From a virus, in IMG/VR virus record IMGVR_UViG_3300039183_000005, positions 104,333 through 168,332 of that record: 64,000 nucleotides of DNA; one strand, given 5' to 3'. The translations under genes were made by a program, and so were the position numbers. Of this stretch, positions 10,174 through 62,597 are shown in pieces (within the stretch, counting starts at the first letter, position 1; every line of letters begins with the position of its first letter). The notes beneath the pieces are model-generated. The model searched no databases, was not told the DNA's origin, and worked only from the letters and a program-made list of their open reading frames with translations.

Positions 10174-11949
10174 TTATCCTTCTATGTCGCATATTCCACT
10201 CGGGCAATCGTTTATTGCCGCTTCTTCTTTCATCTGCTTTAGGTATTGTTTTGCTTTTTCTAGTGGTATTGGTACTAGCGGAGATTTCCCTCGACTGCCA
10301 TCTCTGTACACAGTAATTCCTTTGAGTTTACCAATATATTGTCTTATTTCTTTCGATAATTTTTCGACCGAATAATTAGCCGATAAATTAATTGTCTTTG
10401 ATATAGAATTATCCACATGTCTTTGACAAATAGCCTGCATTGCTAGGTGATCTTCTGGTACAATATCATGGGCACATTGAAAATGTTTTGTATCTCTATT
10501 AGTTTCCAAAAACTTTTTTAATAATGGATGCACTACCACTTCGACAGCCCCATCTCTTTTGCCGTTATTATGCATATCTTTATGTTTATTAAAACGCCGT
10601 TCATAAACTGGTTGAAACAATGGTTCTATGCCAGACGAACAACCAGCCATAATAGATGTTGTACCGGTAGGAGCAATGCAAAGTAAAGCGCAATTACGAA
10701 GACCATGTTCTTTGATAAGACGATGATGTCTTCGCGGAAGACATTTTTTAACAAACCCTGTTTTTATATGTTTGTTCGCATCAAATGCGTGAAATGATCC
10801 CTTTTCGATTGCCAAAGTAATACTTGCGTGATAAGCCTGTTTTTTTATAAAGTCCATCATTTTATCTACGATATCTCTTGCTGCTTGACTAGAATATTTC
10901 ATACCTAACTCTAATAGCATATCATGAAGACCCATCACCCCAAGACCAATACGACGATGGTTTTCTGACGTTTCCTGAATAACTGGAAGTGGATAATTAT
11001 TTTGATCTAATACGTTATCTAAAAATCGCACACCCATGGCCACTGTTTCTTCTAATAAATCCCAATCAATTTTACCATTAATAATATGTGTATGAAGATT
11101 AATTGCCCCAAGGCAACAACATCCATATTCTTCCAAAGTTACTTCGCCACATGGATTAGTTGAAGAAAATTCTCCACCTGATACATAAGCAATTGTGTTT
11201 TGTTCATTGATCAAACTAACATTCAAAAATCCAGGATCACCATTTCTCCATGCATTTTGAATAATTTTATTCCAAATATCTTTAACTTCAATTTTCCCTC
11301 TTTCTTCTCCATGCCACCTGAAAACTATTTCACCATCCTCATCCAACAGTTTAAGAAATTCATTGTCAATAAGTACAGAAATGTTGGCATTATTCAATTC
11401 TTTATTGTCAAGTTTTGCTTCTAAAAATTCCAACAAATCAGGGTGTCTCCAATCCAAACAATAAAGTAGAGCTGATCTCCTACCTCCTCCCTCCCTCAAC
11501 TCATTGCAAATACCATTAATTGCCCTCATTAAACTAACTGAACCAGTAGCCTCACCGCCCGTACCTCTGATTTTAGTACCTCTTGGTCTTATTTTCGAAA
11601 AATTAAGTCCAACGCCGCCACCGGTGCCAGAAATAATAGTGACATTTCGTAGAGCATCCCCCCATCCTTCTCGACTATCATTAACAGGAATCACAAAGCA
11701 ACCAAGCATTTGTCCTCTTGGTCGTCCAGCGCCTCTCCAAATTCTACCGCCAGGAGAGAAACGATTTGTTTGTAATATGTCTAAAAATCTCGTAAAATAT
11801 TCATCTCGCTTAGTTCCCATCTCTGCATCTGCAATCGTACGAGCGACACGTTCACATGCTTGGGAAAATGTTTCTTCTTCGTGAATAGCGTATCTATCTT
11901 GAAAAATCTTTAAGGCAAATCCTTGCGGTGAATATTTTGCGATACTCAA
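10174..11949 (-). CDS. nrdJ: Class II (B12-dependent) ribonucleotide reductase
   Basis: GCFV; TNPCGE; CCLGAINL; IAPTGT; KGITVYRDGSR; C-terminal CPSGIC; no beta subunit nearby. Confidence 0.88.
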   Translation of the reverse strand: MSIAKYSPQGFALKIFQDRYAIHEEETFSQACERVARTIADAEMGTKRDEYFTRFLDILQTNRFSPGGRIWRGAGRPRGQMLGCFVIPVNDSREGWGDALRNVTIISGTGGGVGLNFSKIRPRGTKIRGTGGEATGSVSLMRAINGICNELREGGGRRSALLYCLDWRHPDLLEFLEAKLDNKELNNANISVLIDNEFLKLLDEDGEIVFRWHGEERGKIEVKDIWNKIIQNAWRNGDPGFLNVSLINEQNTIAYVSGGEFSSTNPCGEVTLEEYGCCCLGAINLHTHIINGKIDWDLLEETVAMGVRFLDNVLDQNNYPLPVIQETSENHRRIGLGVMGLHDMLLELGMKYSSQAARDIVDKMMDFIKKQAYHASITLAIEKGSFHAFDANKHIKTGFVKKCLPRRHHRLIKEHGLRNCALLCIAPTGTTSIMAGCSSGIEPLFQPVYERRFNKHKDMHNNGKRDGAVEVVVHPLLKKFLETNRDTKHFQCAHDIVPEDHLAMQAICQRHVDNSISKTINLSANYSVEKLSKEIRQYIGKLKGITVYRDGSRGKSPLVPIPLEKAKQYLKQMKEEAAINDCPSGICDIEG

Positions 11950-14335: not shown

Positions 14336-14842
14336 TCACCTCACAACACATACACGTCTCATTTTTCCAATCGCCCTTTCTCGAATGCGACATACTGTGG
14401 ACGGAACGATATTTTGTTCAAGTGATACTTCCCTAATAGTTTTATCACCAAAAAATAGCCCATAAATTATAGCTCGCTCATTGTCGCTAAGAAATGATAT
14501 TAATTCCTCCACCATTATGCGCATATTTACATCAACGACAGGACTGGCTATGTCAAAAGCAGAATCAATTGATACAATTTGGATACGTTTGGCCCTTTTT
14601 TCTGCGTCTAACATATGCATAAATAAACCATGTATTCTGCCATAAACAAAAGTTAAAAAAGAACCGCCTTGGCAATAACAAATCATACATTTTAATAATT
14701 CATCATTAGCTTTTGCTCTAAATTCTTCTGCCTGCAATCGATTAGATGCAATTCGAAATGCCAATTTGTTAATAAGTGGAGCATATTGCGAACAAGCAAA
14801 AGCGAAATATTGCTTTGTTATACGACGTTGTTGTTTTATCAT
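14336..14842 (-). CDS. Sigma-70-like factor (regions 2 and 4)
   Basis: Y.PLI.KLA; FLTFVY..I; region-4 HTH LSDNERAII...KTIREVS...PSTVCRIRERAIGKMR. Confidence 0.75.
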   Translation of the reverse strand: MIKQQRRITKQYFAFACSQYAPLINKLAFRIASNRLQAEEFRAKANDELLKCMICYCQGGSFLTFVYGRIHGLFMHMLDAEKRAKRIQIVSIDSAFDIASPVVDVNMRIMVEELISFLSDNERAIIYGLFFGDKTIREVSLEQNIVPSTVCRIRERAIGKMRRVCVVR

Positions 14843-15528
14843 ATTTTAAATCTCTTATTAATGTTTTGTTCCATTCGTGGAGTCCATATTCCGTCAATAA
14901 GCCCTATTTTAATTGCCTGTCTAGGAGACATCCATTCGGTTTCATTCATTAGTTTAGTCAATTGTTTAACTGTTAATTCAGTTCTTCTAGCTAATGATGC
15001 AACTTTTCGACTATAATCTTCTTCTACATGACCTGTCATCTTCGAATGTCTTTCGATTGATTCTGTCTGATTTTGTATAATCACTGAATGCAACATCATC
15101 GATGAATTTGTTGTAGCATAACGACAACCTTTTGTTCCGAATGCTGCTATCATGGCTGCCATTGAATGAGCTTGACCACGAACAATTGTATATATAGGAC
15201 AACTACACGCTAACATTTGATCAATAATAGCATAGCCAGATGCCATACAGCCACCAGGGCTGTGAATATATATATATATTGGTTCTTTTAGTAGCGAAAA
15301 GAGTTGTAAATAATTACAAATATGCGTAGATGTTATTTCATTAATTTCGCCAACAATAGAAAGCCTGCGTGTCCTTACAAGAAATTCTTCAATTATTTCA
15401 TCGACACTAATTGGGATTGATGAATTTGTGTCACTTTCATACTTGTCACAATACTCATGATCATCTTGATTTTTACCTTTATTAAACTTCACTTTTGTCT
15501 CCAAATGGGTGATATTTTTTATGGACAC
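14839..15528 (-). CDS. clpP: ClpP-family protease subunit
   Basis: YIHSPGG; GQAHSMA (Ser); MMLH (His); WMSPRQAIKIGLID. Confidence 0.9.
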   Translation of the reverse strand: MSIKNITHLETKVKFNKGKNQDDHEYCDKYESDTNSSIPISVDEIIEEFLVRTRRLSIVGEINEITSTHICNYLQLFSLLKEPIYIYIHSPGGCMASGYAIIDQMLACSCPIYTIVRGQAHSMAAMIAAFGTKGCRYATTNSSMMLHSVIIQNQTESIERHSKMTGHVEEDYSRKVASLARRTELTVKQLTKLMNETEWMSPRQAIKIGLIDGIWTPRMEQNINKRFKI

Positions 15529-16366
15529 CTATAAGTTTATTACTATCTATTGCAAGATAAGTTTGTGTTGTCGATAAGTATTGATGGCCCAACAGGGCTT
15601 GTATTAGTTCTAAATCTATATTGCGATTCATTAATTCTGTTGCACAACTTCTGCGCAACATATGTGCTGTAGTATGTCTTATGCCAGCCCGACGAGAAAT
15701 AGATACTAACATATCGCTGATAGCGCGACGTGTCATTCGTTGTCCGTTTGATTTTACGAATACCGCAGTGGTTTTTGATTGACGGCCAGAATTTAAATAC
15801 AATTTAATTGCTTCGGCACATCGCCAAGTTGTCGGAACCACCCTATCTCGACCACCCTTACCACGAACACGTATTTCACGTTTATTCAGATTAACGTCTT
15901 TGATATCTAAATTACACAATTCAGATACACGAAGACCACTGTGGTACATAGTTAATATAATAGCGATATCACGGCGAATGTTAGTTGTTCTGCATGTGGA
16001 TAAACGCTTTTCCACAGTGGCCACAAGAATATCCACATCTTTAGAATCCAATGCATTTGGTATTCTCCTGTTTATACGTATTGAGTCTATAGCATCGATG
16101 GTTCGAGAACTTAATAAGCCAAGACTTATGAGATGATGATATAAACATCTTATCGACATGCATTTTCTGCGAATTGTTGTTGGCTTATATCCAAGACTGC
16201 GAAGATGGCCCATAAAAGTTTCCACTAGTTGGGCAGTCAATTTTTGTGTTCCGCTAAAGTCGAGAAATTCTTTGGCATCTTTTGTGTACGCAGATAGCGT
16301 TTCCTGTGTCAAACAAAGTTCAGTACGAATGTATGTTTCAAATCCATCCATAATTGCTGTGGACAT
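15482..16366 (-). CDS. XerC/D-like tyrosine recombinase
   Basis: SGLRVSEL; GKGGRDR; HMLRRSCAT; LLGH..LSTTQTY (full catalytic set). Confidence 0.92.
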   Translation of the reverse strand: MSTAIMDGFETYIRTELCLTQETLSAYTKDAKEFLDFSGTQKLTAQLVETFMGHLRSLGYKPTTIRRKCMSIRCLYHHLISLGLLSSRTIDAIDSIRINRRIPNALDSKDVDILVATVEKRLSTCRTTNIRRDIAIILTMYHSGLRVSELCNLDIKDVNLNKREIRVRGKGGRDRVVPTTWRCAEAIKLYLNSGRQSKTTAVFVKSNGQRMTRRAISDMLVSISRRAGIRHTTAHMLRRSCATELMNRNIDLELIQALLGHQYLSTTQTYLAIDSNKLIGVHKKYHPFGDKSEV

Positions 16367-16430: not shown

Positions 16431-17258
16431 CTATGCTCTACGGTAAATCGATTCAATTCCTTTTGTTCCATCGTCTAACACAACTTCTTTCATTCCATGA
16501 ACAAAAAGCGGAGCTTTATCTTGTAAAATACGAAACACTTTAACCGCTAATTTTCTAATTTCAACATCTGCTGCTGGATTTGCTCGAAGTTCTATAAGAT
16601 GACGAACCGCCCTAGCATTCATTGTAACACCGATTTTAGTTTCTGTCGCATTCGGAAGTACCGATCTTGCAGCTTGACGAGCTTTCTTTCTACGCTCAAG
16701 CTTACTCGAAATATCGGCATACATATCAGATAATTTACTGGTTAATTCTTCGTAAAGTTGCTTTGATCGTTCGCAATGCTCTGTCCACTCGCGATATGCA
16801 TCTGGGTCTGCTTCCGCCAACTCTTGAATCGCTGGCGGAATTATGAAGGATACGTTGGATGAATCTACATAACGCTGACTTAATTGTGAGTATCCAACTC
16901 CTATTCGATGCCTTACTAGTTCGTGTGTTAAACTTCTACTTACATTCCATATCGCGAAATTAAATGTCGCATGTTCAAGGCAGGCACCATGAAAAGACTC
17001 TATAAGATTTTTAACATGATCATCATGACATCTCCCCTTTGCTGTCTCGCCCTTTTTCGGCCAAGACTGGTAACACATTCTACCGTTAAATTCTACTAAC
17101 CATTCTCCATCATTGTCCCCAAGACTCATCATAGATTTTATATTGTCTTCAAATTCTTTCCATTCATATCCATGTTCATCAAGGAATTTCATAATTCCAT
17201 CAATTTCGATAATAGGCTTCCCTATCATTTCTACTCTTGGTTCTGTTACAAAAGACAT
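16431..17258 (-). CDS. thyX: Flavin-dependent thymidylate synthase
   Basis: GRMCY; SRSLTHELVRHR..YSQLSQRY; ARSVLPNATET. Confidence 0.95.
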   Translation of the reverse strand: MSFVTEPRVEMIGKPIIEIDGIMKFLDEHGYEWKEFEDNIKSMMSLGDNDGEWLVEFNGRMCYQSWPKKGETAKGRCHDDHVKNLIESFHGACLEHATFNFAIWNVSRSLTHELVRHRIGVGYSQLSQRYVDSSNVSFIIPPAIQELAEADPDAYREWTEHCERSKQLYEELTSKLSDMYADISSKLERRKKARQAARSVLPNATETKIGVTMNARAVRHLIELRANPAADVEIRKLAVKVFRILQDKAPLFVHGMKEVVLDDGTKGIESIYRRA

Positions 17259-17274
17259 ATTGTTCTCCTTTCGG

Positions 17275-19282
17275 TTATATTTGTTTTTTTTTCTTGGTTT
17301 TATATGCTTTTTGATTTTTAATAGCTTTTTCCAACAAACGAATCATTGGTACTACTTTTCTGTGATCAAGTGCTAAGCCATATTCTTTCGAGCAACTACC
17401 CAATGGACATTTTTTGCATTCTTTGTGTAGATAATGCTGACACAATGCACAGGATTCGTCGTCTATCGTTAAACCATCATCATCATCATATATTTCAAGT
17501 CCGCTAAACTTAACATTATGTTTCTTTCTATTTCGATATAATAGCCCCCTCCATTTTCTAAGAGAATGTTTCAATGCAAATCTTTTTGATACTTCGTACG
17601 CTGGTGTTTTATAAAATTCTTTTTTCCATGAATCTAAACTCATTTACTTATCCTTTCTCAATTCTTTTAACATTTGACGCTTTTCTTCTTCGACTTTGTC
17701 CAAATCTATATTGAAAAACTCTGCCAAAAGTTTTTCTGTATTCAAATACGTTGGACTATATTCCATTTCATCCTCACCATCTATCAACTGACATATGGTC
17801 ATTTCTTTAATATTTTGTAACCATTCCAAAAACTCACCAATTGCTTGAGACTTATCTTTGATAGCCACCATTTTTTCACATTCTGGATATTTGTTTTTCA
17901 TTTTTTTCTCATTAATCCGCTATATATCCACCACAAGTTGCCAAGAACAACTGCCAATTCCTTACCCATTTTATAAATTCTTCTGGTGTGCCACCCCATA
18001 GATGGTTAGCCTTATCCAAAACCTTCATTATTATTTCATCTGTGGTTCCAGCTATTTTGTCGGCTGTTGTCGCCGACATATGTTTATCCATTTGATATGG
18101 TACCCGGTGCCAGCCCTCCAACTTTCCTGTTTCTGGACAGGTAGGTAACCCTAGATGTTCATGAAGTATTCCCAAGAGATCGCATCCGCATACATTTGCA
18201 TCCCAACTACCATCGTCAAATTGAGACGAACAATGTGGTTTATTTTTTAAAATAGAACGATACGTTAAACTCATTTGATTTCCTTTCTAATATTTCGTAT
18301 TGTTGTTCCAATTAAATCTCGTCGTGCTGGTTGATTATCCAAATAATCATCATAACGATCAATTTTTCTTATGAATTCTTTAAGCTTTATTTGTTGAGAA
18401 CATAACACTATAAATCCAAACATATAGTTGTGCGGAACATCATTAGGCAATTTTTTAATTTTCATTATTTCATTTTGCCAACCTTTTATATAATATCCAT
18501 CTGGATACTTGATGTCAACAAAAAAATATCTATCTATATATGGTATTTGGCGATATCTAATTCTAAAATAATATCCATTGATACTTTTTAATATCATAGT
18601 TGGTGGTTTCATTTTTGTTTCCTAAATTCATTCAACAACTGTACTTTTCTTTCAAATTTATTATTTAAAATCCATCGAAATTACGATCGTATTTTTCTAT
18701 TTTATCGAAAAAATCGTATAACTCTTTATACCATTCTACATGAATAAATGATAACAGTTGACATAAGATTGATAAATTGCATTTACTCATATCAATTATA
18801 GATAATTCGTTAATATATCTATTTCCATCATTAATATCTATAATTAAAAGTCTATCCAATTTATTGCGAATTCTATACCTCAATCTAAATCTTCCTCTAA
18901 CCATCGTTGGTGCTCTCATCAAAGTTTAACTCCTTAATTATTTTTCTATTTTCATTTGTTTTAAGTCGATTTGTTCAATATTTGACAACATTGTTTTCAT
19001 CTTATTTATTTCTTTTTTAAGTAAACCGATACAATATCGCCTTGCTAATTCTGGATTTTTATATACAAATTTTTTAGTTTCTGGCGCAGCAAAATCTTGA
19101 TCGTCAGTACCAATCATAATTGTAGTAGTATTTGAATAATATCTTTTTGTAATGCCAACTACCCCACTTAACCTTTCAAACGATCGACAGCGTATTTTAT
19201 ATATTTTGCAACTACCTAACCAATAGCTTACCCAATAATAAACGTTTCCTTTTTTTATTTGATATCCATCTTTGGTTTTCAT
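17275..19282 (-). other. Six small hypothetical genes (17275-17643, 17644-17901, 17912-18274, 18271-18612, 18665-18922, 18938-19282)
   Basis: Contiguous coding-strand ORFs; no family recognised. Confidence 0.6.
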
Positions 19283-54581: not shown

Positions 54582-55730
54582 CGCAAATCTCCCACAAAAA
54601 AGAGTGGAAAGGATTCCCCGCCAAATCCCATCCTACTGATATACCCATATGGCTATACACCAGTACCCACACATTTATGGCAAGCAAACCCACCAGACTT
54701 GCCACATTGAAATCAGGGATGCCGTACTAAATGGTCTCACACCCCGATAACAACATTCCCGACCCGTAGGTCCAACCAATCTACTTTTATGGACAACGCC
54801 CTACCTTTGCTGTCTTGCCAGCTATGCTACAAAAAATCGTTTACACGAAAATTTGATCTCGGCATGGAATAGGACGGTTTCATTGTGTCCTTCATTAACG
54901 ACAGTGTATTTCGCAGCGCGCAACCAGACCGGGCAATCGGTTTACTCTGGTTTTGCTAACTGGCTGTCGTGTCGTGCCGTTCAGCGTACCATCAGACACG
55001 TGGGCGCAACTCCAAACGTCCGACGAATCCAAACAAGTATGAAACTCTTACGCTATCCGATCGACCGACCCCGCGCGCCATCGGCATAGTTCACAAGACC
55101 ATTTTCGATAGAAATTACAGCGCAGAAAGTTTATCAGACTTGCTACGAGGATTGCCTATCACACGACAAAATCAAAGCCCATACTCCACGCTAGACGATA
55201 TTCCCATAACATACGTGAATAGTTAATGCACAATTCACAAAATACGTTTTCGCTGTTTATTGCCGAAATAAACCCTTGCTTGACGTATGGAGAAATCGCG
55301 CATACGATATGTTACTTATTCCGTCCGCGCCTAGACGGTATAGACTGAGCCCGCATTTCGGACTCTGCGTTTTGCCGCCGCTAGAACTGGCTTTCGACCC
55401 GATAATCGTTGTTCCGGTTTAGACCCGACTACGCACGTCTTGCGCTATCGACAGACCCTACTACGGCAATTATCGGACTACTAACCAACTCCGTCCGGGA
55501 ATACCCGACACTTATCGGACTCCCCGCCGTATTGGTTATGGGAACCGCTGACACATTTAGTGTGCCTATATCAGACAGACTTTACTCTGTCAGCGCGGAT
55601 GTTATCCGCCAAGCGATTCAATCCAGACTTTATATCTGAATGCCCATCGGTCCACACTCTGGACGCGCCGAGAGTTCTTCGGACTATGCTACTGAAACAG
55701 AATATCGCCCAAAGTGTGGTACGGCGGACA

Positions 55731-56060
55731 CTACTTGCTGACCGTCACAAAATCGCGCAGGGACTTACGAATACCACCGATGGACGCCCGACGACCCATA
55801 ATTCCGGCGGAGATATGGGACGCATTGAGGCCGATCCAACCATCGCGCTCCGGTGGCGTATATCCGGACCCTTCGGCGTAGGCCGTTTCGAGACGCGCCC
55901 ACGTCTCCTGAAGCGCAGCGATAGCATCCTCAAGAGTCTTGAACTTGGACGCGGCATCGACGATGCCCTTGTGGTCCTTATAGGACGCGGCCAAAGCCCG
56001 AAAATCATCCAGACTATACTCCGTCCCTACTTCATTCTCGGCAACCATAGCGTTGGACAT
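55731..56060 (-). CDS. Hypothetical protein, likely early and highly expressed
   Basis: GC-rich 109-aa ORF with an AGGAG RBS, downstream of a consensus sigma70 promoter. Confidence 0.65.
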   Translation of the reverse strand: MSNAMVAENEVGTEYSLDDFRALAASYKDHKGIVDAASKFKTLEDAIAALQETWARLETAYAEGSGYTPPERDGWIGLNASHISAGIMGRRASIGGIRKSLRDFVTVSK

Positions 56061-56249
56061 AACACAACTCCTATAGGAAAGTGTACATCCGTCCTATGCC
56101 GAAACTACCCCGTCCCGACTATAGGACGGACAAGTAGTGGACTAGGCTTTATTCGGACGCGCCTTGCACGCGCCTCTTGTTTTCGGTCCTAGACAGGACT
56201 TCGGCTTGCGTCCGTTTTCGTGTTATCAGTTTCTCATATCCTACATCAT

Positions 56250-56278
56250 ACTATAGATTTAGTTATACATACTGTCAA
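56250..56278 (-). promoter_or_regulatory. Sigma70-type promoter
   Basis: TTGACA-N17-TATAGT on the minus strand. Confidence 0.75.
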
Positions 56279-57238
56279 GGCGCGATCAAAAAAACTTTTC
56301 CGCCTTTTTAGGCTAAAATCCGCGTTATTATTATGCAATTGCCGATAATATCGAATTGTAACAACGTCCGCTTTTTTACATCCGATAATATCACCGTTTT
56401 TGATCGGTCTTATAAGAACACGTTATTATACGCCGTAATGCGCTATATTATCGAATCGTCCTATAGGATGTATTATGCTAGTTCAATAACTCAAAAAGGT
56501 CCAAATAATTTTGGCTTTCTTATGTGAATGGTTCAATAATACTTACACTTGTGCGCAAATGTAAGCATTTTTATCCAATAAGTCCGATAAAAATTTCAAT
56601 TTCCGATAATTTTAATTTGATATTATCAGATATTTACAATAATATCGTAGTCCGATAAGTAGATTCTCATAAAAATTGCCGTTTGTTGGCTGTAAACCGA
56701 GATATTATCGGAAAATACATGCACGCCAAACTAGAATCCGAACATGTCCGATAAAACCCACGGCCCAACGTCCTATAAATTACGGAGGTCCGCGCCTACC
56801 GATGGTCCGATAAAGTTTGAATCTGCGCAAAAATATAGGACCAAGAATTGCGCATGTCCTTGGTCCTATAATTCGGATCGGTTATCGGTCTAAACTGTTT
56901 AGGCGCTGTGCGAATCCGATAATTCTTTGCCTGTCGCTGTCCGATAATCTCGGATTGTTATTGGGCTTCCATTTCTTATCGGAACCGCGCCATACCAGTC
57001 CGATAAGCTTATGTTCGCATTCGATGCACCGATAAACTTGATAGATATTATCGGATATTCTGCTGAATACCAATAGGTTATCGGTCCTAGTGTTTTCACC
57101 CTGCGATTGCGCATGTCCGATAAATTTCTTCTCGTTTATGTTCACGTTATCGCTCCCTACCATAACGCAATAGTTATCGCTATCGCGTACAGTACTACTG
57201 CAATCCAGAATCTCGTTTCGCGCCCCATAATTCCACCG

Positions 57239-57550
57239 TTAGTCCAATAACCTAACATCCACGATGCCTACAGTATCGGACTCGTCAACGTCCGAAAACA
57301 TGAGATTCCCTATGTATCCGTAGTTATTGGCCAAGTTGGTTTCAAGTCCAACTTTAGCGCCGCGCTTGGTTGTGCCGAATCCGCACGCGCCGTAGGTCCG
57401 AGAATGGAATGGTCCGATAACCCATGCCATCCAATATCGGCCGTTTCTACTGTAGCAATAACGGACAGTCCGTTTTGCCGAAAGTTTACGATTTACGGCA
57501 TCGACCGATAATGCCGTACGTCCCGTCTGCCCGATAACTGAATTCCTCAT
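57239..57550 (-). CDS. Hypothetical protein
   Basis: AAGGA RBS; lies downstream of promoter 57591-57619. Confidence 0.6.
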   Translation of the reverse strand: MRNSVIGQTGRTALSVDAVNRKLSAKRTVRYCYSRNGRYWMAWVIGPFHSRTYGACGFGTTKRGAKVGLETNLANNYGYIGNLMFSDVDESDTVGIVDVRLLD

Positions 57551-57590
57551 TTTCCTTCTCCCGATAATAACTTGTTTCCGCGTTCACTAT

Positions 57591-57619
57591 ATTCTAGGCT
57601 AGCGCCGCAAGACAGTCAA
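57591..57619 (-). promoter_or_regulatory. Sigma70-type promoter
   Basis: TTGACT-N17-TAGAAT on the minus strand. Confidence 0.7.
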
Positions 57620-57623
57620 GGTC

Positions 57624-57947
57624 TTATAATGCTTTTTTCTCACCGGATAGCCTGCGAAGGATTATCGCTCGTTGCGCCTTTGTCGTCCGATAACGCCATC
57701 GGTCCAGGATGCTATGATTAGTCCCATAATGATTGCAGGCCCAAAATCCTAGTCCGATAACCACTATCGGTACAATCCATCCGATAAATCTTGCCGCTAT
57801 TCCGATAACGAATGTTGCTCCGATAATTCCTCCGATGGTACTAAGAAACAACATTGTAAAGCATGAGTAAATAGCCCAACCGTCTATGGTCCGATAAGAC
57901 GAATCTTCTTTCTTGGTAGCGATAACCATATCTCCGTAATCAAGCAT
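57624..57947 (-). CDS. Hypothetical membrane protein
   Basis: Two hydrophobic Ile/Gly-rich segments. Confidence 0.55.
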   Translation of the reverse strand: MLDYGDMVIATKKEDSSYRTIDGWAIYSCFTMLFLSTIGGIIGATFVIGIAARFIGWIVPIVVIGLGFWACNHYGTNHSILDRWRYRTTKAQRAIILRRLSGEKKAL

Positions 57948-58176
57948 TGCTTGAACTCCTAACGTGTCCGATAACTAGCTGATTCTCTAGCGTATCGTTT
58001 CCGATAACCCTCATTGCTCCCGATTCAAGTGTTACTATAACGAATCCTTCTTCTTCCGATAACATTCTTGCTGCGATGCGTCCGAAAGACATAGCAAGAG
58101 CGTCCGATAAACCCTCTGTCGCTGAGGGTCCGATATCTCCCATCTTCGGGATTTCCAGTTTCGCTTTACCGTACAT
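57940..58176 (-). CDS. Hypothetical protein
   Basis: AAGGAG RBS upstream of ATG 58176. Confidence 0.55.
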   Translation of the reverse strand: MYGKAKLEIPKMGDIGPSATEGLSDALAMSFGRIAARMLSEEEGFVIVTLESGAMRVIGNDTLENQLVIGHVRSSSNA

Positions 58177-58244
58177 TATAGGACTCCTTACACACGGGCC
58201 AAATTAGATTCAAATAACGTCCGACTATGCAGTCCCTTTGTTCG

Positions 58245-58493
58245 TTATCGGCCCAAGACGACCCTATCTACAATGTCCGATATACGAACGTAATCTTCAC
58301 ACTCCCGATAACTTGGCCAATTATCGGGCACTAGCAGAGAATCGGCGTTTCGGTTATCGGTCACAGAAACTACTTCGGCATGTTCCGATAACTTTAGCCA
58401 GTCGAGCAGGTCCGATAGGTATAGGTCCGGTACTGCGGCATACTTATTGAACCTACAATCCGGCGTCCGATATGTAATCACGTTATAGGTCAT
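58245..58493 (-). CDS. Hypothetical 82-aa protein (probable true start of the 183-aa track ORF)
   Basis: GGGAG RBS and TAATG coupling to the upstream microgene. Confidence 0.55.
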   Translation of the reverse strand: MTYNVITYRTPDCRFNKYAAVPDLYLSDLLDWLKLSEHAEVVSVTDNRNADSLLVPDNWPSYRECEDYVRISDIVDRVVLGR

Positions 58494-58582
58494 TACAGTC
58501 TCCCTGAAAGATCGTCCCATATTCCCCAAACCGCCAAACCACCGATAATTACCACTAACAAACATCCGATAAGCATGGTCAT
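58493..58582 (-). CDS. 29-aa single-TM microprotein (not in the ORF track)
   Basis: MTMLIGCLLVVIIGGLAVWGIWDDLSGRL; TAAGGAG RBS. Confidence 0.6.
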   Translation of the reverse strand: MTMLIGCLLVVIIGGLAVWGIWDDLSGRL

Positions 58583-58594
58583 AGTTATCGCTCC

Positions 58595-58762
58595 TTACAG
58601 AATGCGTCGCCCACAATGTGAAGTGTTCTTGCAATACCTCAGAGAACGGTACGTCCCGATAATTGCCCCAAGGATTGCTAGTCCGAGAACCACATAGATA
58701 CTGTGGTTCAGGTCCGAAAACAGCCAAGAGGTTACTTCGTTGATTAGAGTCTGATAATTCAT
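58595..58762 (-). CDS. 55-aa single-TM microprotein (not in the ORF track)
   Basis: MNYQTLINEVTSWLFSDLNHSIYVVLGLAILGAIIGTYRSLRYCKNTSHCGRRIL; AAGGA RBS; first gene after promoter 58801-58829. Confidence 0.6.
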   Translation of the reverse strand: MNYQTLINEVTSWLFSDLNHSIYVVLGLAILGAIIGTYRSLRYCKNTSHCGRRIL

Positions 58763-58800
58763 CGTTTCTTTCCTTTATGTTAGTGTCATCGTCCAATTAT

Positions 58801-58829
58801 ATTCTAGAATAGAATCTGCAAGAATGCAA
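58801..58829 (-). promoter_or_regulatory. Sigma70-type promoter
   Basis: TTGCAT-N17-TAGAAT on the minus strand. Confidence 0.6.
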
Positions 58830-58852
58830 GAAACAAAAAAGAAAAAAGTCAC

Positions 58853-59043
58853 GTCCTATAACTTAGTCCGTTTCGGTGATGTGTTGTGGTATGGTATCGG
58901 GCTAGTCCTATAACTCATACCTTGCATGTCATGCAAGATATTAGTCCGATAACTCGGCTTGATCGGTGGGTAGTCCGATAACTCGGTCTGGGGGTATGCT
59001 GGTAATATAGGTAAGTCCGATAACTCGGGCAGGGTCCGATAAC
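58853..59043 (+). repeat. Iteron-like direct repeats
   Basis: AGTCCGATAACTCGG exact at 58943, 58972 and 59014; GTCC[GT]ATAAC at 58853, 58905 and 59034. Confidence 0.85.
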
Positions 59044-59134
59044 GCACGGGGTTCATTCACAACAAGCCAAATTCCCCCACTCCCTACAACTTTTCGCGTA
59101 CACTCTTTCTTGTACCACCCACCTTATCCCCCAC

Positions 59135-59148
59135 AGGGGGTACCCCCT
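59135..59148. other. Perfect 14-bp palindrome AGGGGGTACCCCCT at the strand switch
   Basis: Read directly from the sequence. Confidence 0.8.
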
Positions 59149-59296
59149 TTTTCACACGCCAGGAGAAACCGCTTTATCGGCTCCAAAAATATCAAAAAAA
59201 AATCGGAGGAAGATGGAAAATAGGGGCGGATTTGACGTATAATAAGATAGCGGCAAAAGCCGCTCTCGTGAGCTACGCACCCTTATATTCCCTTTT

Positions 59297-59929
59297 GTGT
59301 CTTGCGAAATGGTCAATAACATGAGTTACACAATGAATAGAAAAATTCGGCATCCATATCAAATATTGAATATATCAGAATTAATTGTTGGAAATAATTA
59401 TTGTTTTATAAGCGACAATCCCAAAACAACATTTTTATCATCTTCAGTATATGTTGGTGTGATCGAAGATAGTCTCGCCGCAGCTTCTAAAAATGGATGC
59501 AATCTTAATACAACTCCGAATTCGGTGTTAACTTGTAGTGTGTTTACTGATCCTGCGATAATAGATACAACGTGGATAATAAAAAACAAATTAACATTAA
59601 ATATGTTTACAATTCACTTTGACTGCTGGATGCCAAATAATTTATTTACTGACGATTCGACATTAGTATATTGGGAAAAGAATGGAACAACAGCATGGGA
59701 TTATATGAGTACATTTTTGGGAAAAACAGAACTTAAAGGCAACACACACTGTATTATAGTACCACAAAAAAACTGGAATGATGATCAACGAATACACGTA
59801 CGGGACTGGGAAAATCCCGATTGCGTTATAGAACGAGCTAATATCAATACAATTGAAAATGCTGTGAACTGGGAAAAGAAAATGAGGGCCAAGAAGCATA
59901 CGGCTATGGCTAAAGCCTTAGGTTTCTGA
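59297..59929 (+). CDS. Hypothetical protein, first gene of the plus-strand block
   Basis: 210-aa ORF; GTATAAT at 59237-59243 upstream; tail AMAKALGF. Confidence 0.65.
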   Translation: MSCEMVNNMSYTMNRKIRHPYQILNISELIVGNNYCFISDNPKTTFLSSSVYVGVIEDSLAAASKNGCNLNTTPNSVLTCSVFTDPAIIDTTWIIKNKLTLNMFTIHFDCWMPNNLFTDDSTLVYWEKNGTTAWDYMSTFLGKTELKGNTHCIIVPQKNWNDDQRIHVRDWENPDCVIERANINTIENAVNWEKKMRAKKHTAMAKALGF

Positions 59930-61688: not shown

Positions 61689-62597
61689 ATGAAAATTGCA
61701 TATATTAACAAACGATTTTCAAAAACATCTTTAGCTATTATTGAATATGCTAACGATATCATTGAAGAATATGCTAGTCAAGGTTATACGTTAACACTTA
61801 GACAGCTATATTATCAATTTGTTGCTCGTGATCTTATAGCTAATCGTCAGTCAGAATACAAGAGACTTGGTTCTGTCATAGCAGATGCCCGTCTGGCTGG
61901 AATGGTTGACTGGAATGCTATCGAAGATCGCGGTAGAAATATCCACCGCCCCGTTACATGGGAAAATCCACCTACAATAATTGATGCTTGTGCCGAACAG
62001 TATAAACTTGATCTTTGGAAGGATCAGAACTATCGTCCTGAAGTGTGGATAGAAAAAGAGGCATTGTTATCTATTGCTCAAGCTGCTTGTGAACCATATC
62101 GTGTTCCTTACTTTGCGTGTAAAGGATATGTTAGCCAAAGTGCAATGTGGGATGCAGGCGCAAGACGCATAAGGTCATATATTAATGCAGGGCAGATTCC
62201 GGTCGTTATACATCTAGGTGACCACGACCCAAGTGGCATTGACATGACACGAGATATTTTTGAAAGACTTGATTTGTTTATAGGTGATCCTATCGATATC
62301 AAACGTATTGCCCTGAACTTTAGTCAGATAGAACAATACAAACCACCGCCAAATCCTGCGAAAATAACCGATTCCAGGTTCAACGGTTATGCCGATAAGT
62401 ATGGAGAAGAATCATGGGAACTCGACGCTCTTTCTCCAAAAGTTTTAGTTTCATTAATTCAAGATGAAATATTTTCGTTATTAGATAAAGAAAAATGGGA
62501 TATTTTGATAGAACAAGAAAAACACGAGAAAGAAACTCTTTCGGCAATTGCCGATAACTATGATTTGGTAATCAAGGCGGTTAGCGAACGTGGGTAA
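61689..62597 (+). CDS. Topo VIA/Spo11-like TOPRIM domain protein
   Basis: TLRQLYY; EVWIEKEAL; KGY.S; GDHDPSGIDM; WELDAL. Confidence 0.8.
   Translation: MKIAYINKRFSKTSLAIIEYANDIIEEYASQGYTLTLRQLYYQFVARDLIANRQSEYKRLGSVIADARLAGMVDWNAIEDRGRNIHRPVTWENPPTIIDACAEQYKLDLWKDQNYRPEVWIEKEALLSIAQAACEPYRVPYFACKGYVSQSAMWDAGARRIRSYINAGQIPVVIHLGDHDPSGIDMTRDIFERLDLFIGDPIDIKRIALNFSQIEQYKPPPNPAKITDSRFNGYADKYGEESWELDALSPKVLVSLIQDEIFSLLDKEKWDILIEQEKHEKETLSAIADNYDLVIKAVSERG

Follow-up and report, generated by a model that had tools for sequence, protein, structure and literature searches.

The 64-kb window analysed here (the last 64 kb of the 168,332-bp virus record IMGVR_UViG_3300039183_000005, a genome labelled G000) contains a zone of 2.8 kb, at positions 56341–59180 of the window, in which a short DNA word with the core consensus (G)(T)CC(G>t)ATA(A) is written through genes and non-coding DNA some 50 times. 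A zone of the same type is kept in related phages, the word is identical to one arm of the chromosomal dif site of certain bacteria, and the phage encodes a recombinase of the XerC/XerD type. We tentatively read the zone, with a probability of about 40%, as an array of isolated putative sites for an Xer-family tyrosine recombinase, forming a landing pad at which recombination does not take place.

The motif zone, its conservation and its genes

The hexamer CCGATA occurs in the zone 52 times (plus strand 39, minus strand 13), exactly as counted by hand in an earlier sequence-only reading of this DNA, which had also put the chance expectation at one or two copies. Elsewhere in the 168,332-bp genome its density is 0.62 per kb, both strands counted, so that the motif is far from equally frequent genome-wide, and 1.77 copies would be expected in the zone (Poisson p = 1.6e-56). 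The density amounts to 13, 18 and 18 copies per kb between 56 and 59 kb, drops to 3 between 59 and 60 kb and is 0 between 60 and 62 kb, while four copies trail leftwards to 54744; the sharp fall near 59.2 kb and the taper towards about 54.7 kb had both been noticed before. The longer form GTCCGATAA is present in 20 copies in the window, against 0.47 in dinucleotide-preserving shuffles; all 17 of its plus-strand copies in the 168-kb genome lie inside the zone, and only 2 exact copies of the word are found in the remaining 165 kb. The variant GTCCTATAA, also proposed earlier, exists in 6–7 copies. The polarity that had been suggested for the zone is borne out by the orientation bias of 39:13 (binomial p = 4e-4).

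The G000 genome, whose record ends overlap by 226 bp and which is therefore a circular assembly, consists of two arms that diverge at about 59.2 kb of the window, and this point is also the global minimum of the cumulative GC skew. G002 (160 kb, with a GC content of 48% versus 37% in G000) is syntenic with G000 over nearly its full length, with 60–85% protein identity. One zone each, 2.4–5.2 kb long and with 38–102 copies of CC[GCT]ATAA, was found in G000, G002, G004, G005, L157 and L461, always in the first kilobases of one arm, at a divergent switch and a flip of the GC skew. About 78% of the copies in these zones are directed toward the switch in the sense 5'-GTCCGATAA-3', and a reversed control word occurs 0–2 times per genome. 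Since the zone is kept in place, polarity and sequence across independent assemblies of the family, an assembly chimera or artefact does not explain it.

The comparison with G002 also revealed that positions ~33600–55700 of the window (138–160 kb of G000, about 22 kb) have no counterpart in that genome, in which a homologue of the 109-amino acid (aa) gene described below is followed, across a contig junction, by a homologue of the G000 sequence at 137.6 kb. G002 is rated 96% complete, and the ~22-kb difference may reflect either extra DNA inserted in G000 or sequence missing from G002.

The element is confined to the word itself, (G)(T)CC(G)ATA(A), with no information in the flanks (45 bp upstream and 16 bp downstream). 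Among copies with one mismatch in the zone, variation is seen at bases 1 and 2, at base 5 (T for G in 6 copies) and at the final base, while both C's and the A-T-A core are nearly invariant; L456 and L461, two loci of the family, have G, C or T at base 5 and only rarely A. Copies on the same strand are always at least 15 bp apart, the gaps between copies are irregular (11–239 bp), and periodicity is weak and inconsistent (8.1–8.3 bp in the phage family, 10.3–10.4 bp in other phages). No conserved hairpin context was found around the copies, and an Rfam search of the window and of 53.5–60 kb returned a tRNA and one sub-threshold match only. A megablast search of cultured phages with the zone as query found no match, and no description of this word, or of arrays of Xer half-sites in phages, was found in the literature.

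The features of the zone and its surroundings are as follows.

54744–55520: left tail of the zone, with 4 further copies (54744+, 55399+, 55471−, 55513−)
56341–59180, both strands: main motif zone, with 52 CCGATA and the core consensus given above
56341–56881: apparently non-coding A+T-rich stretch with 8 copies (7 plus, 1 minus)
57239–57550, minus strand: conserved 103-aa gene with 6 motif copies; homologues of 37–59% identity in L080, L074, L056, L090 and L157
57624–57947, minus strand: conserved 107-aa membrane protein; homologues in L080 and L074
57940–58176, minus strand: 78-aa gene; homologue in L056 (53% identity)
58245–58490, minus strand: gene of ~80 aa with an approximate start; homologue in L080, the conserved part being only the C-terminal part of a 183-aa open reading frame (ORF)
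58305–58327: the sole head-to-head pair resembling a full site, CCGATAA, 9 bases, TTATCGG
58943–59042, plus strand: intergenic cluster at the divergence point, with three exact copies of AGTCCGATAACTCGG (58943–58957, 58972–58986, 59014–59028)
59033–59044, plus strand: GGTCCGATAACG, in the same intergenic cluster as the three AGTCCGATAACTCGG repeats
59100–59300: divergent strand switch and global minimum of the cumulative GC skew
59125–59142 and 59249–59264: hairpins at the strand switch
59214–59243, plus strand: predicted sigma-70-like rightward promoter

Other viral contigs contain homologues, 35–59% identical, of the ORFs of the zone (103, 107 and 78 aa, and the last 80 aa of the 183-aa ORF), and the alignments contain invariant columns also away from the residues encoded by the motif. 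Some motif copies occupy identical alignment columns in all of six homologues, and others are lineage-specific. The motif passes through the ORFs in all three frames, with 13/7/5 copies in antisense and 1/6/3 in sense, and the Ile-Gly pairs of the 107-aa membrane protein are encoded by motif copies. The antisense orientation is favoured within genes because one of the sense frames contains a TAA stop; however, the copies in apparently non-coding DNA of the zone (11 plus, 3 minus) are biased alike, and the polarity thus belongs to the array itself instead of coming from coding constraint alone. Since these ORFs are real conserved genes and carry the motif in all frames, selection acts on the DNA word rather than on the protein, as the sequence-only reading had held. 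In this zone, selection on the DNA thus prevails over coding sequence, a clean natural case in which the motif reshapes proteins by forcing Ile-Gly, Leu-Ser-Asp and Tyr-Arg into real genes. As that reading also proposed, the zone has the appearance of a region onto which a protein with sequence specificity is loaded.

None of the ORFs in the zone matched a family in Pfam or PHROG, neither these ORFs nor those flanking the zone matched a replication family of the two databases, and no relatives of the 210-aa product of the first rightward gene were found. The model of the 103-aa protein has an alpha-beta-beta-beta-alpha order at low confidence, with weak dsRBD-like matches. The A+T-rich stretch (~56200–56800) has a GC content of 0.34–0.35. 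An extended form of the repeat in the intergenic cluster, GAGTCCGATAACTC, is found again 7 times in G001, a phage unrelated to G000. On its left the zone is bordered by a GC-rich island at 55400–56280 (52–56% GC in a 37% genome), which contains a conserved 109-aa ORF (55731–56060, minus strand) with homologues in five relatives; the best sigma-70-like promoter of the region (56278–56250, 11/12 matches) precedes this ORF.

Identity with a dif arm and candidate readers

The word was compared with bacterial dif sites in a survey that applied a loose dif pattern to samples of four phyla. In Myxococcota, dif reads GTCCGATAA, 6 bases, TTATG(T/G)(T/A)AA; the pattern was matched in 34 of 71 genomes, mostly once per genome, and 24 of the 36 matches have the GTCCGATAA arm, with GTCCTATAA, GTCCCATAA and GCCCGATAA as variants. 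In Planctomycetota, the GTCCGATAA arm was present in 11 of 30 matches, in 8 of the 121 genomes searched. The arms in Verrucomicrobiota (GTCGCATAA) and Bacteroidota (GTCCTATAA, TTCCTATAA or GTCGTATAA) differ from the phage word. In three single-contig chromosomes, the site lies at 49% (G116), 51% (G201) and 63% (G091) of the record length; the bare 9-mer is no commoner than its reversed control in G091 and G116, and in G201 it is present at dif only. The published dif sites of Myxococcus and Anaeromyxobacter have this arm as well, their XerC arm, at the start of the site, being (A/C)GGTCCGATAA or ACGTCCGATAA, and the conserved portions of the XerC arm are its inner part and position 5 (PMC2731167).

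At the level of sequence, GTCC(G/C/T)ATAA therefore equals the XerC-side arm of dif in Myxococcota and in part of the Planctomycetota. The phage word stops exactly at the end of the arm, and its loose and fixed positions match the variation reported for dif arms. Regular-expression scans of G000, G002 and G001 found no site in which 6–8 bases separate the motif from a second arm, and the head-to-head pair at 58305 has a 9-bp centre, longer than the 6–8 bp of known Xer sites, in which the centre is flanked by two inverted arms of 11 bp. Among the bacterial sequences, a small contig of a Planctomycetota metagenome-assembled genome (G137:C753:97-2620) contains three GTCCGATAA-6 bases-TTATGTTAA sites within 2.6 kb, a pattern expected of elements integrated at dif by Xer recombination.

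The phage carries a candidate reader of its own.

15482–16366, minus strand: XerC/XerD-like tyrosine recombinase of 294 aa, candidate phage-encoded reader

This protein matches both the XerD and the XerC model with E 1e-64, below the equivalog cut-offs, and its catalytic Arg, Lys, His-x-x-Arg, His and Tyr are intact. It is a core gene product of a large uncultured phage family (>100 clusters, 47–79% identity), many members of which are on contigs of 160–180 kb, while cellular Xer proteins are only 31–36% identical to it. G013 was assigned to the G000 family because its recombinase is 65% identical. On the minus strand at 14336–16366, the recombinase gene is accompanied by two adjoining genes, one for an ECF-like sigma factor of 168 aa and one for a ClpP-like protease of 229 aa.

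Several other candidates were considered and rejected. The 302-aa protein encoded at 61689–62597, annotated as a phrog_6247 'DNA topoisomerase', could be assigned to no family of Pfam or NCBIfam, and the syntenic G002 lacks a counterpart; the protein matches phrog_6247 with E 1e-110 and has homologues of 45–55% identity in phages of Pseudanabaena, Microbacterium, Pseudomonas, Xylella and Roseobacter. DUF7178, a family without described function that recurs near arrays in other phages (see below), is absent from the G000 family, the weak match in G000 being a dCMP deaminase. DnaA boxes have only TTATC in common with the word, and around position 0 of G091 and G116, two complete Planctomycetota chromosomes, no clusters are present. 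Nine genomes were compared with each other by BLAST and 145 ORFs next to arrays were scanned with Pfam; neither comparison revealed a common family that could be a shared phage-encoded reader. As clustering at the BLAST level found no phage protein family common to all array-bearing genomes, a conserved host factor is a candidate where the recombinase is lacking.

Arrays in unrelated phages

Viral contigs were scanned for three copies of TCCGATAA within short gaps, and at least 120 stretches matched. Among the matches listed, strict filtering for arrays that are irregular and not tandem left at least 20 loci, which carry an additional conserved GT in front of the word that the search with TCCGATAA did not impose. 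The element is thus widespread: the phages bearing it, with GC contents of 36–59%, fall into several groups that have almost no proteins in common with G000 or with each other. The smaller unrelated phages have arrays of 5–37 copies that lie mostly between genes, in blocks within which the orientation is uniform. A control scan of viral contigs with TCGCATAA found no irregular arrays; another with TCCTATAA found 3, two of which are members of the G000 family, while the third is an array of GTCC(T/C)ATAA in another phage (L385). The same triple-copy scan of bacterial genomes yielded mostly regular tandem repeats without the GT prefix, which were treated as background. Among the bacterial loci are those of Lysinibacillus and Ureibacillus (L167, L173, L186, L204 and others), with 4–5 copies of T(G/T)TCCGATAAA at an exact period of 21 bp, an array that resembles iterons and is built on the core word of the phage zone.

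The neighbourhoods of the arrays differ between groups. In G007 and G014, which are unrelated to G000, a recombinase of the XerC/D type is encoded within ~1 kb of the array-bearing stretch. In the G011 group, the array immediately precedes a small ORF and the gene for a T7-type large terminase. In G006, arrays flank a gene pair encoding a radical-SAM protein and a DUF7178 protein, and DUF7178 is also found in G009 and L065; the arrays of G006 and G009 are away from any skew switch. The DUF7178 proteins between or near GTCCGATAA arrays are at L116:6045-6848 (G006), L115:11097-11717 (G009), L065:6943-7572 and L283 (G001). An AlphaFold model of DUF7178 (pLDDT 69) has a weak likeness to HhH-GPD DNA glycosylases (Ogg/AGOG), with a best Foldseek E of 0.08 and a TM-score of 0.44–0.54 against the M. 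jannaschii enzyme. G001, a 154-kb phage unrelated to G000, contains 7 copies of GAGTCCGATAAC(T/C)C within 2.8 kb (L029:15379-18165) near a contig end; if its genome is circular, a 520-aa DUF7178 protein is encoded ~4 kb from these copies.

A further feature of several array-bearing phages is the N-terminal domain of a MazZ-like dATP/dGTP diphosphohydrolase (PF18909, E 4.5e-28), encoded at L305:11519-12268 (G006) and with homologues in G002, G007 and G009, which hints at 2-aminoadenine (Z) genomes. BLAST found no counterpart of this domain in G000, in a comparison that included no search aimed at PurZ.

Interpretation of the zone and comparison with known systems

According to the preferred reading, the reader of the array would be the XerC/D-like protein of the phage itself or the XerC of its host, and phages without a recombinase of their own would depend on host XerC. 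The sites would bind monomers and would not recombine, as expected from the lack of a partner arm at 6–8 bp from any of them, and most are oriented toward the divergence point. Together they would form a high-capacity pad over the first 3 kb of early genes, next to divergent promoters and the likely origin. That an Xer protein binds the array is suggested by the sequence of its word. As for the role of the bound protein, the data are compatible, in order of preference, with occupying or silencing the early region, with blocking or evicting DNA-tracking complexes, and with soaking up host XerC. The consistent polarity toward the divergence point and the presence of a phage-encoded recombinase argue for a positive role on the phage DNA, while the varied genomic contexts of arrays in other phages argue that this role would be independent of context.

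A number of observations weigh against this reading. The bridge to Xer is the identity of one 9-mer, for which we estimate the chance of matching some known site at a few percent, unlikely but possible. The complete or near-complete array genomes G006, G009, G011, G012 and G015 encode no tyrosine recombinase, and a phage-encoded Xer protein therefore cannot be the universal reader. No motif copy is consistently present at the promoter of the recombinase gene, and Escherichia coli XerC binds its own arm weakly without XerD. The diversity of array contexts in other phages, next to a terminase in some and to the DUF7178/radical-SAM pair in others, also fits poorly. Finally, the viral contigs yielded no arrays of the arm of Verrucomicrobiota type, and it is therefore not a general rule that phages carry arrays of the arm of their host.

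One could also hypothesise that the zone is a sponge of tens of host dif XerC arms, one such sponge per genome, in phages of hosts of the Myxococcota or Planctomycetota type, which would load Xer without recombination and thereby sequester XerC from dif, or stop or evict loop extruders of the SMC type from the incoming genome. We regard this more specific proposal as unlikely; if true, it would define a new class of phage cis-element exploiting the machinery of chromosome resolution. More generally, if Xer does bind, the zone would be, to our knowledge, the first phage element made of lone dif arms, and the second natural case of Xer acting on DNA without recombination. The array word, taken as the dif arm of the host, is offered as a host predictor for uncultured phages that needs only sequence.

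Among explanations that do without Xer, an iteron-like field at a replication origin, where another initiator would load itself or a helicase at the point of divergence of the arms, is unlikely but deserves the most attention. It accords with the position of the zone beside the strand switch and GC skew minimum or flip in every family member, with the A+T-rich stretch at 56.2–56.8 kb, and with the short intergenic blocks of 5–18 copies in smaller unrelated phages, which resemble classical iterons. However, the arrays of G006 and G009 are not at a skew switch, the GC skew may merely follow gene orientation, and neither an adjacent initiator gene (Pfam, PHROG) nor a protein family common to the array phages was detected. 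Moreover, 9-bp sites in 40–100 irregularly spaced copies over 2.4–5.2 kb of coding DNA go beyond any known origin: where iterons are 3–20 regularly phased non-coding repeats next to an A+T-rich unwinding element, the G000 zone has 52 irregular copies, mostly in genes. A field of stoperator-like sites, through which a phage repressor or late switch protein would block early transcription in a direction-dependent manner, appears improbable. Its asymmetric sites, ~75–78% of them in one orientation relative to the genes they lie in, do cover the first and presumably early genes of the leftward arm beside divergent promoters, and the cluster A mycobacteriophages provide a precedent for many oriented asymmetric sites; but here the sites are gathered in one zone, with 2 exact copies elsewhere in 165 kb, instead of being dispersed over the genome, no repressor candidate lies in or beside the zone, and the identical word recurs in unrelated phages without a common regulator. 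This explanation would be compatible with the preferred reading if the Xer-like protein itself were the blocker.

The strong polarity of the copies toward one point could also indicate a packaging or genome-end region, either a pac-like field for a small terminase or polar words that, like Chi or KOPS, guide or stop a translocase or exonuclease. The array upstream of the terminase in the G011 group agrees with this, but that is the only unrelated group to do so; in G000 the large terminase (G000 16680–18851) is ~21 kb from the zone, the circular assembly with its 226-bp overlap has no known physical end, and Chi and KOPS words are host-specific and run along whole replichores, while the present word is at background density outside the zone. 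Packaging is thus a quite improbable explanation. Still less can be said for an array of -10 elements of sigma-28 (FliA/SigD; GCCGATAA), which would serve as promoters or titrate a sigma-28-like holoenzyme. CCGATAA is indeed the -10 core, the fliC promoter of Clostridioides difficile reads GTCCGATAA (PMC3865298), and three sigma-like ORFs are encoded (G000 11355–11900, G000 87421–88008 and window 14336–14842). Nevertheless, no TAAA or other conserved upstream element was found at any spacing in this zone and ten other arrays: TAAA, which should stand 13–16 bp upstream of GCCGATAA, occurs only at scattered offsets within 45 bp upstream. In addition, the G of the critical CGA is freely swapped for T or C, 2 exact copies elsewhere in the genome make no general promoter, and most copies would fire antisense to genes. 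The missing -35 element and the variable critical G rule out sigma-28 promoters, and the sigma-28 explanation as a whole is very improbable. The least credible proposal is an RNA-level motif, UUAUCGGAC, in early mRNAs, as the target of an RNA-binding protein or endoribonuclease that times mRNA decay. Although ~70% of the genic copies place the same word in the mRNA and the 103-aa zone protein has a weak dsRBD-like predicted fold, a quarter of the copies are inverted, the arrays of other phages lie mostly between genes and include blocks of either orientation, and there is neither a conserved hairpin context nor an Rfam match.

Comparison with known systems sets the zone apart from each of them while pointing to partial precedents. 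The stoperators of cluster A mycobacteriophages are likewise numerous oriented asymmetric sites (~9–14 bp) under DNA-level selection, but they are dispersed genome-wide over short gaps between genes, with the immunity repressor as their reader, whereas the phage array is one dense zone, mostly within genes, and is common to unrelated phages. The lambda origin, P1 incA/incC, the octamers of P4 ori/crr and the Epstein–Barr virus (EBV) family of repeats resemble it in having short repeated protein-binding words at one locus near a likely origin; they consist of 4–20 regularly phased non-coding copies beside the gene of their reader, while the phage arrays have 40–100 irregular copies that overlap coding sequence, with no reader gene adjoining.

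The systems of tyrosine recombinases are closer. TnpI of Tn4430 and Tn5401 binds extra half-site motifs outside the crossover core, with an architectural or regulatory effect. The phage zone would share with it the additional half-site copies for a tyrosine recombinase, which in the phage is putative; the transposons have two to four such motifs beside a functional core, and no core site was found in the phage zone. With dif/XerCD, the phage has in common the 9-mer, its boundary at ...ATAA and the pattern of fixed and loose positions of the XerC-side arm, as well as a XerC/D-like recombinase. However, dif is a single 28-bp site with two inverted arms and a 6-bp centre, while the zone consists of ~50 lone arms without a XerD-type arm or a 6–8 bp centre, and recombination is not expected there. 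XerD-specific sites are present at the terminus of Bacillus subtilis, where XerD unloads SMC (Karaboja et al. 2021, as cited in PMC12322038). As would be the case in the phage, where Xer binding is putative, an Xer protein acts there without recombination and at sites other than dif; the difference is that the B. subtilis protein is XerD, whereas the phage genome has tens of XerC-type arms within 3–5 kb. The B. subtilis sites are reportedly a handful, spread over the terminus region of the chromosome. By analogy, the unloading of SMC by XerD at this terminus is a precedent with which a barrier or unloading function of the phage array would be compatible.

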